A DNA stretch of 49,584 nucleotides, from positions 1-49,584 of the forward strand of contig JAUSIT010000028.1 of assembly GCA_030647965.1 (NCBI GenBank), read 5' to 3'. The position numbers were made by a program, and so were the translations under genes. A model generated the notes under the pieces. It searched no databases, was not told the origin of the DNA, and was given only the letters and a program-made list of their open reading frames with translations. Source of the stretch: Nanobdellota archaeon. GTDB lineage: Archaea; Nanobdellota; Nanobdellia; Pacearchaeales; GW2011-AR1. Shown here piece by piece: positions 876-36,104 of the stretch. Position 1 is the first letter of the stretch. The number at the start of each line of letters is the position of its first letter.

Positions 876-973
876 GCCCCTACAGATCATTAGACCATTA
901 CCTTACCCATATTAATATCAAAACAACAGAATGCAAAGCTTTAAATATTACTATCATTATAATGATAGTATGA
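788..973 (+). pseudogene. Truncated 5' duplicate of the histidine phosphatase gene
   Basis: First ~29 aa match 4554..5138 (YLVRHGERIHIP), then unrelated sequence. Confidence 0.85.
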
Positions 974-1608
974 GAATTGAGTTATTGAACCAGTATGTGA
1001 TAAAGATTTTGATTTCATGCAGGAAAGAAGATAGCATTAGCGCTATTTCAGAGAGAATTGGTTTATCTTATGGGTGGACTCATAAATGGGCGGAGGAATT
1101 AATTAAAGAAGGAGTTTTAAAAGAAAAATGGAGAGGAATTATTTTGCAGGATCAGAATCAATCTTACAAAAGAATAATCAAGTTTATTAAAGAAAATTTG
1201 AATGATGTAGTGTTTTATTATTCTGCATTGCAATTATTCGGAATAAACTACTGCTTGACAAAAACCGATGCAGTTTATTTATGGACAGAAGGAAGATATA
1301 ATATTGCCAGATACAAAAATTTTTATCCAATTTTTATTAAGATTAAAGAAGAAGACCATGCTTTATTTTTAGAATATTGCAAAAAATTAAACTTAAAGAT
1401 TAATTCAAAAAAAGGAATTTTCTATTTTCCTGAAATTGTTAAAAAGTTGGAATGCACCAAGAAAAATAATGTACCTGTTGAAACATTAGATAATACTATA
1501 GAATTTATGAAAGATAATATTTATAACTTTCAGCCAGCTTTAGAAATGATAAGTGAGATGTATCATAAAAAATTAGATATTCAATATAAAGAGGTAAATA
1601 ATTTATAA
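970..1608 (+). CDS. Winged-HTH protein, putative antitoxin partner (AbiEi-like organisation)
   Basis: N-terminal HTH-like SISAISERIGLSYGWTHKWAEELIKEG; directly upstream of an NTase gene; ATG at 970 preferred over 931. Confidence 0.65.
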   Translation: MRIELLNQYVIKILISCRKEDSISAISERIGLSYGWTHKWAEELIKEGVLKEKWRGIILQDQNQSYKRIIKFIKENLNDVVFYYSALQLFGINYCLTKTDAVYLWTEGRYNIARYKNFYPIFIKIKEEDHALFLEYCKKLNLKINSKKGIFYFPEIVKKLECTKKNNVPVETLDNTIEFMKDNIYNFQPALEMISEMYHKKLDIQYKEVNNL

Positions 1609-1610
1609 AA

Positions 1611-1742
1611 ATCAAAAAAACCCTTTTGATTATTCATATGGTTTTTAGGATGAAGGAAATTCGCTCGAATTTCCTGCCCTGAAAATTAAATCAATTTTCA
1701 GTGATCCAAAATTTAACTAAATGATAAAAAATTTATAGACAT
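1611..1742 (+). repeat. AT-bounded four-hairpin palindromic element
   Basis: ATCAAAAAA...GACAT; hairpins ggaaattc/gaatttcc and ctgaaaatt/aattttcag; collinear with reverse complement of 6039-6159. Confidence 0.8.
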
Positions 1743-2424
1743 GAAAGAACTTATAAAAAAGGAAAATAGCATATTTGAAATATTGCAGAAATTTATTGAT
1801 TCTTCCTTAAATTTTATTATTGTTGGAGGTTATGCAGTCTCATCTTTTAGGCATAGATTTTCTGTTGATGCAGATATGGTCATAAAAAACCAAGATTTAG
1901 AAGAATTTGAAATTATTTTGAGAAAAGAGGGTTTTAAAAAAATAATAAGTAAAGAATTAGAGAATATTTACTCTTCGAGATTTGTAAGATATAGTAAAAA
2001 TACGGCTAGCATTGACTTAATGATAGATGCTTTAGCTTCAAGAACAACAACTGCTTCATTTAGTTATGATATATTGTCAAATAACTCTTCTAAAAGAAAA
2101 ATAATCGGAATTGAAAAAGAAATAACTGCATTTGTTCCAGACAAAGAAATCTTAATAGTAACAAAAATTCATTCAGGAAGATTAACTGATTTTAGAGATA
2201 TTGCTGCTTTAGCAAAAGATTCTGACTTAAATAAAATACAGAAATTTCTGTTTATAGGAGATATAAATGAGGTCAATAAGAATTTAAGGGAGTTAAATAA
2301 AATTGTTAATGATAAAAAATTTATAGATTCATTTAAAGGAGTATTTATGGAAAAGAAATTTGACATTGATTTAAAACAGGTTAAAAAAATAAGTGAAATA
2401 AAAAATAACTTTAGAAAAGGATGA
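1741..2424 (+). CDS. Pol-beta superfamily nucleotidyltransferase (AbiEii/DUF6036-like putative toxin)
   Basis: VGGYAV...RFSVDADMV motif; later K..SGR..DFRD motif. Confidence 0.8.
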   Translation: MKELIKKENSIFEILQKFIDSSLNFIIVGGYAVSSFRHRFSVDADMVIKNQDLEEFEIILRKEGFKKIISKELENIYSSRFVRYSKNTASIDLMIDALASRTTTASFSYDILSNNSSKRKIIGIEKEITAFVPDKEILIVTKIHSGRLTDFRDIAALAKDSDLNKIQKFLFIGDINEVNKNLRELNKIVNDKKFIDSFKGVFMEKKFDIDLKQVKKISEIKNNFRKG

Positions 2425-2431
2425 TCTATTC

Positions 2432-2511
2432 AAAAAAGCATAACGAACCCTATCTAATTGTCCTGAGCTCAATCCTGAACCGTCATTCGTTCAATAGGAC
2501 TTACTCGTTAT
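2432..2511 (-). ncRNA. Candidate ~80 nt small structured RNA
   Basis: Minus-strand BRE/TATA at 2540-2533, three nested stems, closing T6 tract at 2437-2432. Confidence 0.5.
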
Positions 2512-2595: not shown

Positions 2596-4497
2596 ATGAC
2601 TCAAAAGGAACCAATAAAATTAAATAAAGAACAGCAAGAAGCAGTTAATACTATAGATGGAAATCTTCTGATTATTGCAAGTGCTGGAACAGGTAAAACT
2701 ACAACTATAATTGAAAGGTATGTAAATCTAGTGCAAAATCACCAATATAAACCAAATGAGATAATGATGACTACTTTCACGAATAAAGCTTCAAAGGATA
2801 TGATTAGGAAGATTGTTGAAAGAACAGGTTCTGAACCGCCTTATATGGGAACAATGCACTCGCTTTTTTTAAAAATACTAAGGAGTCATGCCAGGAGTAT
2901 ATCTCTTGATCCAGAATTTACTTTAATCCATGATGAATATGACAAAAGAAAAATAATGAAAAAAATAATTATTGGGGAAGGAATTCCTAATAAACCAGAT
3001 AATGTTAATTATTTCTTATTTTGGATTAGTAAATTCAAGAATCGAGGAGTTTTAGCAGAAGATTTATCTGAAAAATCTACACTAGATGATAATATAAAAC
3101 AAGGAGTTATAGAAGAGATCTTAGATGATGATATTATTCAAGTAGATCCTAATTTAAGAAAATATGTTAATAAAATATATAAGATATATGAACAAGAACT
3201 TAAAAAAATAAATTCAATAGATTTAGATGACATTTTACTACTAACCTTTAAAATATTGGATAAAAATCCAGAAATAAAAGAAAGATATTCTCATAAATTT
3301 AAGGCAATTATGGTTGATGAAGCTCAAGATCTAAATGTTGTTCAGATTAATATTTTAGAATTATTAAAAAATAATAATATCTGTTTAATCGGAGATGATT
3401 GCCAAAATATTTATGAGTGGAGGGGGTCTTCAAATAAACTTGTTTTTGAATTTGATAAAACTGCTAAAAAAGTAATATTAAAAGAAAATTATAGATCTAC
3501 TAAAAAGATAATTACAGCAGTTAATAAAACAATAAATTCTTTTACAATTAAAATTGATAAAAATTTGATTTGCACTAGGGAAAGTGGAAAAGAGATATTA
3601 GTTGAATCATTTCATACTTTTGATTATGAAATAAAGTTTATTGTTCATGAAATTAAAAAATTAATAAAAAATAATATTCAAAAAGAAGATATTGCAGTTT
3701 TATTTAGAACAAACAATATGGGGAAACAAATAGAAAAAGAATTTAGAAGAAATAAAATCCTGTGTCACCTCTCTAAATCTAGAAGTTTTTTTGAAAGAGA
3801 AGAAGTAAGAGACATTATTTCATTATTAAAACTTAAACAAAATTATAATTCCCTTTATGACTTTGAAAGAATAATTAATTTACTTCCAAATTTCGGAGAA
3901 TCAAAAATACATAAATTAAAAGAGATATCAATAAATTATAAATGTTCTCTTGTAAACTCTTTAGATTATTCAGATGAACTAAAACTAAATGAGGATGGAA
4001 AATATAACTTAAATTTATTAAAGGATCTTTTATCAAGTAAGGAAAATCCTCTAAAACTATTTCTTAAAACTTTTAATTATCTGGGTAAGATTATTAATAA
4101 ATATAAAGATGATCCTGAAAAACTAGAAGATAAATTAGAAAATATTAAATTAATTGAAGGATTATTTGAAGAATATTCCCCTGATTTAGAAGGAATAAAA
4201 AATTTCTTAGATAGTTTAATAGAATTAGAGAAAAAAGAAAAAGATAGGGATAAAATAGTATTAACCACAATCCATAGTGCTAAAGGGTTAGAATGGAAAT
4301 ATGTATTTCTTGCAGGATGTAATGAAAAAATATTACCGTTTTATGTGCGGTCATTAACTCCTTTAAAGAGAGATAGTGAGTTAAGATTATTTTATGTGGC
4401 CATATCTAGAGCTAAGGATTTTCTTATTATAACTTATTCAGATAATCATCATTGGAAAGAACTAGATCCATCCCACTTTATAGAGATTATTAATTAA
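2596..4497 (+). CDS. uvrD: SF1A UvrD/Rep/PcrA DNA helicase
   Basis: LNKEQQEAV, ASAGTGKT, TFTNKA, VDEAQD, GDDCQNIYEWRG, ENYRS, TIHSAKGLEW, RLFYVAISRA. Confidence 0.95.
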   Translation: MTQKEPIKLNKEQQEAVNTIDGNLLIIASAGTGKTTTIIERYVNLVQNHQYKPNEIMMTTFTNKASKDMIRKIVERTGSEPPYMGTMHSLFLKILRSHARSISLDPEFTLIHDEYDKRKIMKKIIIGEGIPNKPDNVNYFLFWISKFKNRGVLAEDLSEKSTLDDNIKQGVIEEILDDDIIQVDPNLRKYVNKIYKIYEQELKKINSIDLDDILLLTFKILDKNPEIKERYSHKFKAIMVDEAQDLNVVQINILELLKNNNICLIGDDCQNIYEWRGSSNKLVFEFDKTAKKVILKENYRSTKKIITAVNKTINSFTIKIDKNLICTRESGKEILVESFHTFDYEIKFIVHEIKKLIKNNIQKEDIAVLFRTNNMGKQIEKEFRRNKILCHLSKSRSFFEREEVRDIISLLKLKQNYNSLYDFERIINLLPNFGESKIHKLKEISINYKCSLVNSLDYSDELKLNEDGKYNLNLLKDLLSSKENPLKLFLKTFNYLGKIINKYKDDPEKLEDKLENIKLIEGLFEEYSPDLEGIKNFLDSLIELEKKEKDRDKIVLTTIHSAKGLEWKYVFLAGCNEKILPFYVRSLTPLKRDSELRLFYVAISRAKDFLIITYSDNHHWKELDPSHFIEIIN

Positions 4498-4500
4498 TCT

Positions 4501-4641
4501 TCCCACCGCATCCCCAAAACCTTTTTAATCTTCTTGAAATTAGTGAGTATATCATGTTAAAACATCCTAATAAATATCAAACAGGTAAAACCATTATTTA
4601 TCTTGTGCGTCACGGTGAGAGAATACATATTCCTGGAACTC
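4501..4641 (+). repeat. Direct repeat copy 2
   Basis: Matches 736-875; belongs to the intact gene. Confidence 0.95.
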
Positions 4642-5138
4642 CCCCACCACATGATTTTGGCTTGAGCAAAAAGGGAATAAAACAAGCCAAAGATGTTGCT
4701 AAGAAATTTGTTAAAATAAAGGAGGAAGTTGATGCTCTTTATACTAGCCCAATGAAAAGAGCATTTGAAACAGCTGTTGAAATTGGTAAGAAAATAAATA
4801 AAAAACCAATAGTTATTAAGGGTTTAGAAGAGATTACTAAAATACTTGAAAAACCTAAACTTTTTAATAAAAACTATTGGGGGCAGAGAATAAAGTTTAG
4901 AAAAAAACAAAAAATATTTAATGAGCTTCTTAAAAATAATAAAGGCAAGGTAATAATCTTAGTAGCTCATGGAAGATTAAATAGGATGCTTCTTGGAAAA
5001 AAGCTTGGGCTTTCGCATAAAGCCAGCAATGTTTTTGATTCACATAACTGCCACATAACTATTGCTAGTTTTAAGGGTCAAAAGTTAGATTATATTCATT
5101 GTGTTAATAGTAAAGAGCTGATTAACATACAAGATTAA
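4554..5138 (+). CDS. Histidine phosphatase (phosphoglycerate mutase-like) family protein
   Basis: LVRHGE, LSKKGIKQA, SPMKRAFETA, LVAHG motifs. Confidence 0.9.
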   Translation: MLKHPNKYQTGKTIIYLVRHGERIHIPGTPPPHDFGLSKKGIKQAKDVAKKFVKIKEEVDALYTSPMKRAFETAVEIGKKINKKPIVIKGLEEITKILEKPKLFNKNYWGQRIKFRKKQKIFNELLKNNKGKVIILVAHGRLNRMLLGKKLGLSHKASNVFDSHNCHITIASFKGQKLDYIHCVNSKELINIQD

Positions 5139-5687: not shown

Positions 5688-6032
5688 ATGAGCGAGAGCC
5701 AATCAAGATATAGTATTGTAGAAAGATTAACTCAAAAGAAACTGGATATTATTTCTCAAAAGTTAGAATTAGCTGAAGATTTAAAACTTAAACAACAGAA
5801 AGTTGAACAATTAAAAAAAGAGATTGAAGATTGGGAAGATGATATTCAGCAAGATATTGAAAGAACAAGAAGATTAAAAAAAAGAGAAACAGAAAAATCT
5901 GAAATTGGAAGTGAAAATGCAAAACAAAGAATGGCGGCAAAAGAAGCTGCACTTGATGAAAAAATTAAAGCAATTGATAAAGCATTAGAAAGAATAGAAG
6001 AAATTAGCAAAACCTCTCCAACAAATCAATAG
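5688..6032 (+). CDS. Coiled-coil hypothetical protein
   Basis: 114 aa, E/K/Q-rich heptad pattern. Confidence 0.7.
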   Translation: MSESQSRYSIVERLTQKKLDIISQKLELAEDLKLKQQKVEQLKKEIEDWEDDIQQDIERTRRLKKRETEKSEIGSENAKQRMAAKEAALDEKIKAIDKALERIEEISKTSPTNQ

Positions 6033-6038
6033 ATTATA

Positions 6039-6159
6039 ATGTCAGAAATGAAAATTTCTGAGCACAAGAAAATCACTGATTTTCTGTGCCGAAAATTCCT
6101 TTATGGAATTTTCTTGCATCCCAAAAACCCAACAATAAAACCAAAGGGGTTTTTATGAT
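6039..6159 (-). repeat. AT-bounded four-hairpin palindromic element
   Basis: Reverse complement ATCATAAAAACCCC...TTTCTGACAT; same module order as 1611-1742. Confidence 0.8.
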
Positions 6160-6590: not shown

Positions 6591-7067
6591 ATGGAAGAGG
6601 ATACAACAAATATAGCCATATTTAATGGAAAAACAATAAGAAGAAAGCTTGTTGGAGATAAATGGTTTTTTTCTGTGATTGATGTAGTTTATGCCCTAAC
6701 AGATAGTACTATTCCTAAAAGATACTGGGCAGATTTAAAGGCAAAATTAATAGAAGAAGGATTTGAAGCGTACGATAAAATCGTACTGTTGAAATTAATA
6801 GCAGAAGATGATAAATTAAGAGAAACGGATTGTGCAGACACAGAAGGCATATTTAGAATAATTCAATCAATTCCCTCCAAAAAGGCAGAGCCATTTAAAA
6901 GATGGCTTGCTAAAATTGGTTACCTCAAAAATCTTCATGAATTTAGATTTCTGATGGTCCAAAAATTCCAAACAAATACTCAAGAATTTTTTGATGAAAG
7001 AATACAGGAGATAGAAAATCCTGAACTTGCACAAGAAAGGATGAAAAATTCAATTGAATTATGTTAG
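6591..7067 (+). pseudogene. Bro-N (phage antirepressor-like) protein, with in-frame insertion and probable C-terminal truncation
   Basis: WFFSVIDVV..LTDS..P.RYW.DLK, ETDCAD...FRIIQSIPSKKAEPFKRWLAK; stops soon after ELAQERMK. Confidence 0.75.
6922..6995 (-). repeat. Two-hairpin element inserted in frame (72 nt) in the Bro-N gene
   Basis: Splits conserved GY|ERIQEIENPE; reverse complement begins ATCAAAAAA. Confidence 0.75.
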
Positions 7068-34991: not shown

Positions 34992-36104
34992 ATGAAAATA
35001 CTAATAACCGGAGCAACAGGATTTATTGGAAGCCATTTAGTTGAAGAGCTGAAAAAAGATAAGAAAAATAGTATAAGATGTCTTGTTTTGAAAAATAGCC
35101 CTATTTTTAAAAAAAATAGAGAAAAAAGAGAATTAGAGCTTAAAAATTTAGGTGTTGAAATATTTTATGGGGATTTACTTGATAAAGATTCTTTAATTAA
35201 TGCACTTAAGGGTGTTGAAAAAGTATATCACTTAGCTGCAATAAGCAGGCCTATGAATGTTGAAAAGCATGTTTATTATGATATTAATGTAATAGGAACA
35301 AAAAATTTATTTGAGGCTTGCAAAATAAAAAAAGTCAAGAAAATAATACATGTTTCTACAATGTCTGTTTTTGGATTTTCAAGAAATGGAAATCCTTTAA
35401 ATGAAAACTCCCCAAAACTTCCTGTAAGTGATTATGGAGAAAGTAAAAAACAGGCAGAGGATTTTGCTTTTGATTTTTGCAAAAAAAATAAAATTCAACT
35501 AGTTGTTATAAGACCTCCAATGGTTTTTGGGCCAAGAGATTTTCAATTTTTAAGATTGTTTAAATTAATTAATACTGGATTTTTTCCTTTATTAAAAAAA
35601 GGAAGAGCAAAATTAGAATTTTGTTATGTTAAAAATTTAGTTAATGGAATAATTCTTGCAGATAAATATGGTAAAAATCTAGAAGCTTATGATATTTCTG
35701 ATGGCCAGACATATACTATAAAAGAAGTTTTTGGAAAAATTGCAGAAGTAGAAGGGAAAAAATTATTTCCTTTTTCTGTTCCTGTTTTTTCTGTAAGAAT
35801 TATAGGATGGATATTTGAAAAAACATATGGCTTATTTGGTAAAAAAGCACCTTTTAATTCAGGAACAGGATTATGGATGAGTAAGGACAATGTAATGGAT
35901 ATTTCAAAAGCTAAAAAAGAGATTAAATATTCAAATAAAATTAATCTTGAAGAAAGTATAAAAGAAACAGTTAAATGGTATCAAAAAAACAATATGCTAC
36001 CTACACCTAAAGGCGGGAATTTAAAAAGCAGTAGCACTTGTTTTTTGGATGATCCGAAATTAAAACCAGTAAATTTCGGACATAAAAGTGAGGGTTTATT
36101 ATGA
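34992..36104 (+). CDS. NAD-dependent epimerase/dehydratase (extended SDR), with C-terminal in-frame insertion
   Basis: TGATGFIG, HLAA, YGESK, RPPMVFGP. Confidence 0.92.
   Translation: MKILITGATGFIGSHLVEELKKDKKNSIRCLVLKNSPIFKKNREKRELELKNLGVEIFYGDLLDKDSLINALKGVEKVYHLAAISRPMNVEKHVYYDINVIGTKNLFEACKIKKVKKIIHVSTMSVFGFSRNGNPLNENSPKLPVSDYGESKKQAEDFAFDFCKKNKIQLVVIRPPMVFGPRDFQFLRLFKLINTGFFPLLKKGRAKLEFCYVKNLVNGIILADKYGKNLEAYDISDGQTYTIKEVFGKIAEVEGKKLFPFSVPVFSVRIIGWIFEKTYGLFGKKAPFNSGTGLWMSKDNVMDISKAKKEIKYSNKINLEESIKETVKWYQKNNMLPTPKGGNLKSSSTCFLDDPKLKPVNFGHKSEGLL
35980..36083 (+). repeat. AT-bounded two-hairpin element inserted in frame (102 nt)
   Basis: ATCAAAAAAA...GGACAT; removal restores WYKSEGLL*. 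Confidence 0.75.

Follow-up and report, generated by a model that had tools for sequence, protein, structure and literature searches.

A family of small gene-less hairpin elements within and between genes of a Pacearchaeota-like DPANN archaeon

Results

A hairpin-rich sequence between an HTH gene and an NTase gene

The window (the whole 49,584-nt stretch of DNA analysed here) belongs to a genome, G000, of a Pacearchaeota-like DPANN archaeon (0.98 Mb in 45 contigs, 28% G+C, 85% complete), the placement among Pacearchaeota/Nanoarchaeota coming from the names given to homologues of a gene on a neighboring contig. An HTH gene and an NTase-like gene lie on the same strand (Table 1), and between them stands a hairpin-rich sequence, copy 1, that lies in the interval between the HTH-gene stop codon TAA (1606-1608) and the NTase-gene ATG (1741-1743); the first two bases of that start codon are the terminal AT of copy 1. 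The NTase product matches DUF6036 and NTP_transf_5, in both cases below the cut-offs, and searches against NCBIfam and PADLOC gave no match, which leaves unsupported the suggestion of an earlier sequence-only reading that it is a putative toxin.

Table 1. Features of the window (positions without a contig label) and of labelled contigs of its genome
Feature	Position	Strand	Description
129-nt direct repeat	751-879 and 4517-4645		92% identical
Truncated histidine-phosphatase ORF	788-973
HTH partner gene	931-1608	+	225-aa protein, weak winged-helix match
Element copy 1	1611-1742	+	132 nt; starts ATCAAAAAAACCC, ends TTTATAGACAT
P1 hairpin of copy 1 and fixed flanks	1611-1652	+	ATC-AA-AAAAACC...GGTTTTT-AG-GATG
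Nested two-hairpin module of copy 1	1653-1703	+	51 nt; AGGAAATTC..GAATTTCCT and CTGAAAATT..AATTTTCAG
Last hairpin of copy 1 and terminal CAT	1704-1742	+	worn stem TCCAAAATTT..AAATTTATAGA
NTase-like gene	1741-2424	+	227 aa, length intact
DUF3800-X RNA (RF02984)	2441-2510	-	full-length; 58.4 bits, gathering score 38.2
UvrD-like helicase gene	2596-4497
Intact histidine-phosphatase gene	4554-5138
Element copy 2, inverted sister of copy 1	6039-6159	-	121 nt; 6 nt past the stop of ORF 5688-6032 and antisense to it
Element copy 3	6922-6995	-	74 nt, worn; covariance-model match E 0.0016; in frame inside Bro-N-domain ORF 6591-7067
Element copy 4	35980-36083	+	104 nt; in-frame 34-aa insert near the C-terminus of epimerase ORF 34992-36104
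Dispersed repeats, about 90% identity	22143-22193/28441-28491; 28358-28403/43723-43768; 13006-13053/15318-15365
In-frame copy	C30		host radical-SAM activase (NrdG)
In-frame copy	C13:21198		host CTP_transf_like
In-frame copy	C39:16499		within Fic/Doc-like motif HPFSDGN/../KRTA; Pfam 22.5 bits, cut-off 24
Four further in-frame copies			host ORFs without Pfam match
Copies with mini-hairpin runs	C1:10434-10616; C30:7443-7660; C32:120-351; C4:2167-2334

Copy 1 and its sister copy 2 lie where the sequence-only reading placed them, in inverted orientation, and they are related well beyond shuffled controls. When copy 1 is aligned globally with the reverse complement of copy 2, 90 of 139 columns are identical. 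The alignment scores 38.5, whereas 1000 shuffles of copy 2 score -2.7 +/- 4.2 and never reach that value (z=9.9); a MAFFT alignment of the two copies with their flanks agreed. Both fold strongly. The sense strands reach -30.0 kcal/mol (copy 1, z -4.43) and -39.2 kcal/mol (copy 2, z -4.48), values that in either case none of 200 dinucleotide shuffles equalled, and the antisense strands have z -3.04 (copy 1, 1/200 shuffles as good) and z -6.79 (copy 2, 0/200).

The four hairpins that had been read in copy 1 are present as described, and they make up the two-hairpin core plus a nested two-hairpin module. The 51-nt module, placed after GGATG and before the last hairpin, is missing from two-hairpin copies; we saw the same module only within other copies (C13:21198, C7:14614, C20:19980 and C34:38375), with variants at C16:6039 and C29:29284.

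Empty sites

We located NTase relatives at 36 loci in public genomes (44-84% identity). The HTH partner precedes the NTase gene in 35 of the 35 loci having upstream sequence, and the stop-to-start spacers of these pairs run from -29 to +13 nt, mostly -5 to +2. All 35 being short, orthologous pairs do not routinely carry a long unrelated spacer. The junction of the closest pair, L176 (NTase 84%, HTH 81% identity), is TTATAAAAATG, which equals the window minus 130 nt; in wider context, AACTTATAAAAATGGAAGAT in L176 corresponds to AATTTATAAAA, the 130 nt and ATGAAAGAAC in the window. The empty site TAA-AA-ATG predicted from copy 1 alone, obtained as TAAAAATG when 130 nt are deleted, is thus found in a natural relative.

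A second copy gives another case within a conserved gene. The activase of anaerobic ribonucleotide reductase (NrdG, contig C30) has 270 aa here and about 233 in its homologues, and the 37-residue insert is one clean gap in 8/8 aligned homologues, one of them 86% identical; 37 aa correspond to 111 nt, the 113 nt of the copy minus 2. For copy 3, five contigs from the source sequencing run follow the Bro-N gene as far as 6922, beyond which they agree with 6995-7024 at 26 of 30 positions (compared by eye); since their sequence resumes at window position 6995, these contigs lack 72 inserted bases. For copies 1 and 2, no source-run Logan contig joins the flanks (1611-1742, 6039-6159) and both copies are present in the source contig, a result that is neutral as to their insertion. 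We consider it very likely that 1611-1742 is an inserted small, non-coding, non-autonomous mobile element.

On this reading, copy 1 inserted at the AT of the start codon of the NTase gene, with the ATG rebuilt from the element's own terminal AT, and the 2-nt junction turned into a 132-nt hairpin-rich spacer. Overlapping or near-abutting genes are an arrangement linked to translational coupling in archaea and bacteria in the available text of PMC10666635. As the overlap or short spacer of the orthologues is replaced by 130 nt of stable hairpins, it is reasonable to predict that the insertion removed translational coupling between the HTH and NTase genes. Copy 1 also brings in an A-run and stem followed by a T5 run (GGTTTTTAGG), an arrangement identical on both strands, and P1 is probably a transcription stop in either direction, with a putative polar effect.

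The element family and its anatomy

Relatives in the genome were gathered by BLAST, nhmmer and a motif scan, yielding at least 51 curated full copies of 65-244 nt (median 116) that total 6.4 kb, about 0.65% of G000. Of 60 pattern candidates, we excluded nine that were chance long-range matches or had no hairpin after them (C10+38899, C10-45797, C2+1605, C2+6476, C25-6178, C28+36886, C32+1351, C34-51398 and C34-3503). A covariance model, the search that had been suggested for these elements, was built from 36 two-hairpin copies and gave 57 matches in the genome at E<=0.01, copies 3 and 4 of the window among them; C34:38375 and ten other covariance-model matches were left out of the 51.

All 51 curated copies start with (A/G)TC, and 47 end with CAT. 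The core consists of two hairpins between fixed single-stranded motifs, 5'-ATC-P1-RGGATG-P2-CAT-3', or in detail ATC-AR-[AAAAAYY..RRTTTTT]-RG-GATG-M-[TCAGAAAT..ATTTCTGA]-CAT. The smallest whole elements, at 55-58 nt with loops of 3-5 nt, occur in G054, from another family of the same order. At the other extreme, the P1 tip may carry a nested hairpin CCACACCTTAAAAGGTGTGG, alone or with another 50-nt hairpin, P2 may carry one or two nested hairpins, and extra hairpins also stand between GGATG and P2, showing that the hairpin tips tolerate additional nested hairpins. In one subfamily, 2-5 mini-hairpins with the pattern TCA..TGA-CAK stand in tandem, such as TTCAGGAATgtaaATTCCTGA and CTCAAGAAATcatATTTCTTGA (Table 1), which looks like repeated copying of the last hairpin unit. 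Another hairpin module, AAAAAGTTTTGCTCTT..AAGAGCAAAACTTTTT, recurs in the P1 tip of several copies and beside a tRNA-like sequence at C28:36886, and may be a second small mobile module.

The impression from copies 1 and 2 that stems are kept while loops differ holds across the family. On the 36-copy alignment, 95% of the cells in the 15 core pairs are paired, and changes on both sides of a pair occur in 51 cells, compared with 15.0 +/- 2.8 in shuffles (0/500 reach it) and 1-3 when the structure is slid by one column; the copies are related to one another, and these are counts and not probabilities. Helix 1 (P1) is paired in 99.5% of cells, with both-side changes in two of its six pairs. Only one paired cell is G-U. 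Because the compensation is almost purely Watson-Crick, the constraint on the stems points to pairing of DNA, on both strands, and not of an RNA.

Distribution among genomes

The strict pattern has 25 matches in G000 (reversed control 0) and is present in two of 40 relatives. Among 150 other genomes from the order, 31 have covariance-model matches to the element (24/105 in family f1, 5/5 in f9 and 0/24 in f4), where per-genome counts near 25 should be read as "at least". G166 contains 35 copies of one 119-nt form that are 96-100% identical, and this near-identity indicates a recent burst; near-identical sets of copies were also found in G132, G151 and G055. Viral contigs searched with the core pattern gave 0 matches.

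Placement relative to genes

Most copies in G000 are intergenic, in either orientation; others lie at gene ends, in frame inside genes, or across genes that they split. By crude ORF calls (>=70 aa), the upstream neighbor is on the same strand as the element in 24 cases and on the opposite strand in 25, and the downstream neighbor in 27 and 23. With orientation so mixed, we rejected the idea of a dedicated 5' or 3' UTR element. Nor was there orientation bias with respect to GC skew (23/28), AT skew (26/25) or local gene strand (24/27), comparisons that are uninformative here.

Seven internal copies lie in continuous ORFs, and all are stop-free in the frame of the host (Table 1). Together with the two in-frame copies of the window they have lengths of 2 mod 3, so that the net gain of length minus 2 is divisible by three. 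A Pfam match was found in only three of the seven host ORFs, the Fic match being below cut-off, and these matches end at the insert. Open frames are not an inherent property of the family, a possibility that we considered and rejected: 38/306 frames are open (shuffles, about 5%), and the majority of copies have no open frame among the six. That every in-frame copy is open although so few frames are makes these copies look selected for read-through. The pattern is not an artefact of the search, since in silico excision of length minus 2 also uncovers copies that break genes. The clearest break is in an ADP-ribosylglycohydrolase gene, the halves of which match Pfam profile positions 2-136 and 147-281 of 287. 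Six further copies replace or extend the C-terminus of a gene.

The subfamily ending in ...TTTATRGACAT has seven of nine copies followed by G, and these thus abut an ATG. The closest NrdG homologue, P0002, begins with MDM, as encoded by ATGGACATG, the 3' end of one subfamily, and G000 genes starting at ...ATGGACATG are found at C7:14786, on C22 and at C34:3464. Element ends may generate false or new start codons.

Element ends and target site

Each insertion adds the element length minus 2, with AT at both ends. The second base after the terminal CAT is A in 42 of 51 copies in G000, 16/16 in G166, 16/17 in G132, 13/13 in G151 and 7/7 in G055; the base preceding ATC is variable, which leaves a conserved motif on one flank only. 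Read on the opposite strand, copies follow T-N-A-T (TTAT in 16 of 16 inspected G166 copies) and end in ..TGAT. The 2-bp AT target duplication proposed in the sequence-only reading agrees with the net gain and is made doubtful by the one-sided motif. We regard a one-sided T-N-A-T target, with an element end that is also AT, as more likely than a symmetric AT duplication, two cases that, if the duplication had a biased context, sequence alone cannot separate. No terminal inverted repeats were found in the family (G000 and G166), and a hairpin lies near each end. A partial 7-nt end match, TCAGAAA/TTTCTGA, is present in about half of the G000 copies; the ends do not covary in a hand tally, and the G166 subfamily lacks the match (ATCAAAAAGTCC... 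versus ...CCTTGGCAT).

Candidate mobilizing systems

IS200/IS605 elements move as single strands by means of a Y1 HUH transposase, and are marked by a motif on one flank, by end hairpins, and by the lack of both inverted repeats and target duplication; IS608 and ISDra2 follow a "peel and paste" mechanism. Our leading proposal, held tentatively and at a little less than an even chance, is that the family is mobilized as single-stranded DNA by a transposase of this type acting in trans. The enzyme would move the element as a single strand and insert it beside T-N-A-T, and the central CATC is complementary to the GAT/G junction that such a circle would have after excision, as it is to either end of the element.

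Two of the burst genomes carry Y1 transposase genes, with nine matches in G166 (one such gene is at G166:C44:19797-20150) and three in G151. The Y1_Tnp Pfam (PF01797) has 0 matches in the 85%-complete G000 assembly, and none in copy-rich G132, G055 and G054, which counts against a Y1 enzyme. Co-occurrence is weak, with Y1_Tnp matches in 11 of 31 element-bearing and 25 of 119 element-free genomes (odds ratio 2.1, one-sided p 0.08, relatedness ignored), in assemblies that are 59-100% complete and in which insertion sequences often fail to assemble. A local IS200-like right-end motif is likewise present in 15/31 element-bearing and 44/119 element-free genomes (p 0.17). The ends also speak against an HUH enzyme, being unlike those of IS200-like elements: local alignment of the G166 element with the IS200-like elements of G166 and G151 scored 21, against 18 +/- 2.4 for shuffles, and an nhmmer profile of the element, run against 25 transposase-bearing or related loci, matched only a copy that interrupts a tnpA gene. 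That such a gene is itself interrupted, and that T-N-A-T is a loose target next to those of textbook members, are further points against. The interrupted tnpA (L158, G166:C42:10300-11200) is the Y1 gene of an IS200-like element.

No mobilizing enzyme was found in G000, in a search that covered Y1_Tnp, Resolvase and TnpB; Resolvase had 0 matches, and for TnpB there were two zinc-ribbon matches, both below cut-off. TnpB was not found over cut-off in five copy-rich genomes either. As the G000 copies are diverged and no transposase was found with them, they are probably fossils.

The only feature that the family shares with one IS200-like right end is the short motif GGATG..CAT. We had considered that the center and 3' end of the element derive from the right end ..GGATGTCAT, and now treat the resemblance as possibly due to chance, the local alignment not exceeding shuffles. 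Separately, many contigs of G166, G154, G094, G130, G066, G075 and others begin 40-90 nt from an IS200-like right end (a hairpin with GAGGATGTCAY after it), and right-end motifs of this type occur in 59 of the 150 genomes of the order, far above a reversed-pattern control. The clustering at contig starts suggests that an abundant insertion sequence breaks these assemblies.

A different mode of movement is that of a cut-and-paste MITE mobilized by a DDE transposase or by a recombinase making a 2-bp crossover, which would duplicate an AT dinucleotide, as the sequence-only reading proposed, or recombine at one. AT at both ends with a net gain of length minus 2 would fit, as would the 7-nt end match in about half of the G000 copies and the flanks, which are T-rich upstream and A-rich downstream and so form a roughly symmetric context; DPANN genomes are moreover reported to have high MITE densities in the accessible text of PMC11602168. 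Copies that are short, non-coding, numerous, patchily distributed, prone to bursts, reliant on an enzyme in trans, and present or absent at orthologous sites are what one sees in classical MITEs (Sulfolobus SM1-4, Correia, ERIC), but the family lacks the terminal inverted repeats that define these, and its duplication is doubtful. Given also the conserved base near the junction on one flank only, an end match that neither covaries nor occurs in the G166 subfamily, and the lack of a resolvase in G000 in the search for Y1_Tnp, Resolvase and TnpB, we judge a MITE of this kind unlikely.

More speculative, and rather improbable in our estimate, is that the family is the substrate of an undescribed transposition system with a non-Y1 enzyme and a self-guiding single-stranded DNA core of 55 nt, its copies perhaps being adopted by the host as protein inserts and two-way transcription stops. 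The enzyme is taken to be non-Y1 because the copy-rich genomes G000, G132, G054 and G055 show no Y1. Here CATC would act as a guide that pairs with the circle junction GAT/G and with both cleavage sites.

Could the copies instead be structured RNA genes, or cis-regulatory RNA or terminator cassettes, kept by selection for RNA function? The strong fold z-scores on both strands, the covarying stems, the resemblance of P1 to a two-way terminator (A-run, stem, T-run) and the seven of nine ...TTTATRGACAT copies that abut an ATG would all suit such a role, but it sits poorly with a single G-U cell, with either orientation to neighboring genes, with copies inside and across coding sequences that are missing at orthologous sites, and with the burst of 35 near-identical copies in one genome. 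An Rfam 15 search of the window also gave the elements no match, whether at the gathering score or with E<=1, its sole match being the DUF3800-X RNA outside the element, and a tRNA/tmRNA search of the window found none. We consider RNA function very improbable, although copies may have side effects on the host, such as termination. A reading of GGATGA..CTGA as a box C/D RNA or k-turn was rejected, as the motifs, by eye, are not kept across copies. The least credible explanation is an intervening sequence spliced from RNA (an archaeal bulge-helix-bulge-type intron or similar): several copies do lie inside conserved genes, their T-rich and A-rich flanks could pair, and DPANN archaea are known for many unusual introns, but the seven internal copies are stop-free with a gain that is a multiple of three, as expected of translated and not of spliced sequence, most family frames are closed (38/306 open), most copies are intergenic, and the predicted structures contain no bulge-helix-bulge fold.

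Discussion

Relation to known elements

Returning to mobilization by an IS200/IS605-type transposase in trans, the nearest precedents are the PATEs of Haloquadratum walsbyi, which Dyall-Smith et al. 2011 reportedly described as gene-less derivatives of IS200/IS605 elements. The present family resembles these and IS200/IS605 elements in lacking terminal inverted repeats, in having a hairpin near each end, strand-asymmetric ends and a motif on one flank, in its many short copies, and in the Y1 transposases of some burst genomes. It differs in that its ends have no significant similarity to any IS200-like element examined, and in that no transposase was found in the G000 assembly or in several other copy-rich ones. 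Its target is less strict than TTAC or TTGAT, cleavage would fall 1-3 nt from the feet of the hairpins, the hairpin tips contain nested modules, and there is no remnant of TnpB or of a guide RNA. No IS family is more widespread in archaea than IS200/IS605, according to the available portion of PMC13343696.

Fixed end modules, a variable number of internal hairpins and stable folds on both strands also recall BOX and REP/BIME elements. Pneumococcal BOX has the form boxA-boxB(n)-boxC; BOX and REP elements are extragenic and bacterial, and genomes with REPs have one RAYT gene, a member of the Y1_Tnp family. Our family, in contrast, has copies inside genes as well, and no Y1_Tnp gene was found in the G000 assembly.

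In behavior the closest likeness is to Rickettsia palindromic elements (RPEs), which the accessible part of PMC10969869 describes as palindromic sequences of about 100-150 bp that sit in frame in unrelated housekeeping genes and are read through. In-frame RPEs are described there only for Rickettsia, and archaeal MITEs are listed for Sulfolobus, Halobacterium and Haloquadratum (PMC10969869, same part). The in-frame copies of the present family, in genes for the NrdG activase, an NMNAT-like protein, a Fic/Doc-like protein, an epimerase (in its tail) and a Bro-N protein, are predicted from their open frames to be read through as peptide inserts, and so would work like RPEs. The host is here an archaeon, most copies are intergenic and some break genes, and the likeness is one of behavior, not a claim of a common sequence family.

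A census based on terminal inverted repeats reports very high MITE density in DPANN, and in its accessible text describes no family (PMC11602168); the supplementary tables of that source may list these hairpins as MITEs. A limited literature search turned up no description of this family or of archaeal in-frame palindromic elements. We conclude that the copies form a new family of a known kind, the gene-less hairpin transposon, of which it is a somewhat unusual variant, and that the family behaves like an RPE in a DPANN archaeon.

Selfish DNA has been thought scarce in the tiny, packed genomes of DPANN archaea, and a single family makes up some two-thirds of a percent of this one. It has remodeled operon junctions, added peptide segments to housekeeping enzymes (as predicted), and knocked out genes, and so provides an archaeal counterpart to the in-frame palindromic elements of Rickettsia. 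Annotation is affected as well, through false "MDM..." starts, extended or truncated C-termini and split genes. Should the self-complementary core and the one-sided T-N-A-T target prove true, single-strand transposition would have in the 55-nt form one of its smallest defined substrates.

Neighboring features of the window

Each 129-nt direct repeat spans the start of the histidine-phosphatase gene, from its upstream region into its first codons, one copy belonging to the intact gene and the other to the truncated ORF (Table 1). They bracket a 3.6-kb insert that holds the HTH-NTase pair, the DUF3800-X RNA and the UvrD-like helicase gene, and this segment looks like an integrated island. Within it the RNA stands between the NTase gene, which it directly follows, and the helicase gene. 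The 129-nt repeats are also points at which contigs of the source run break.
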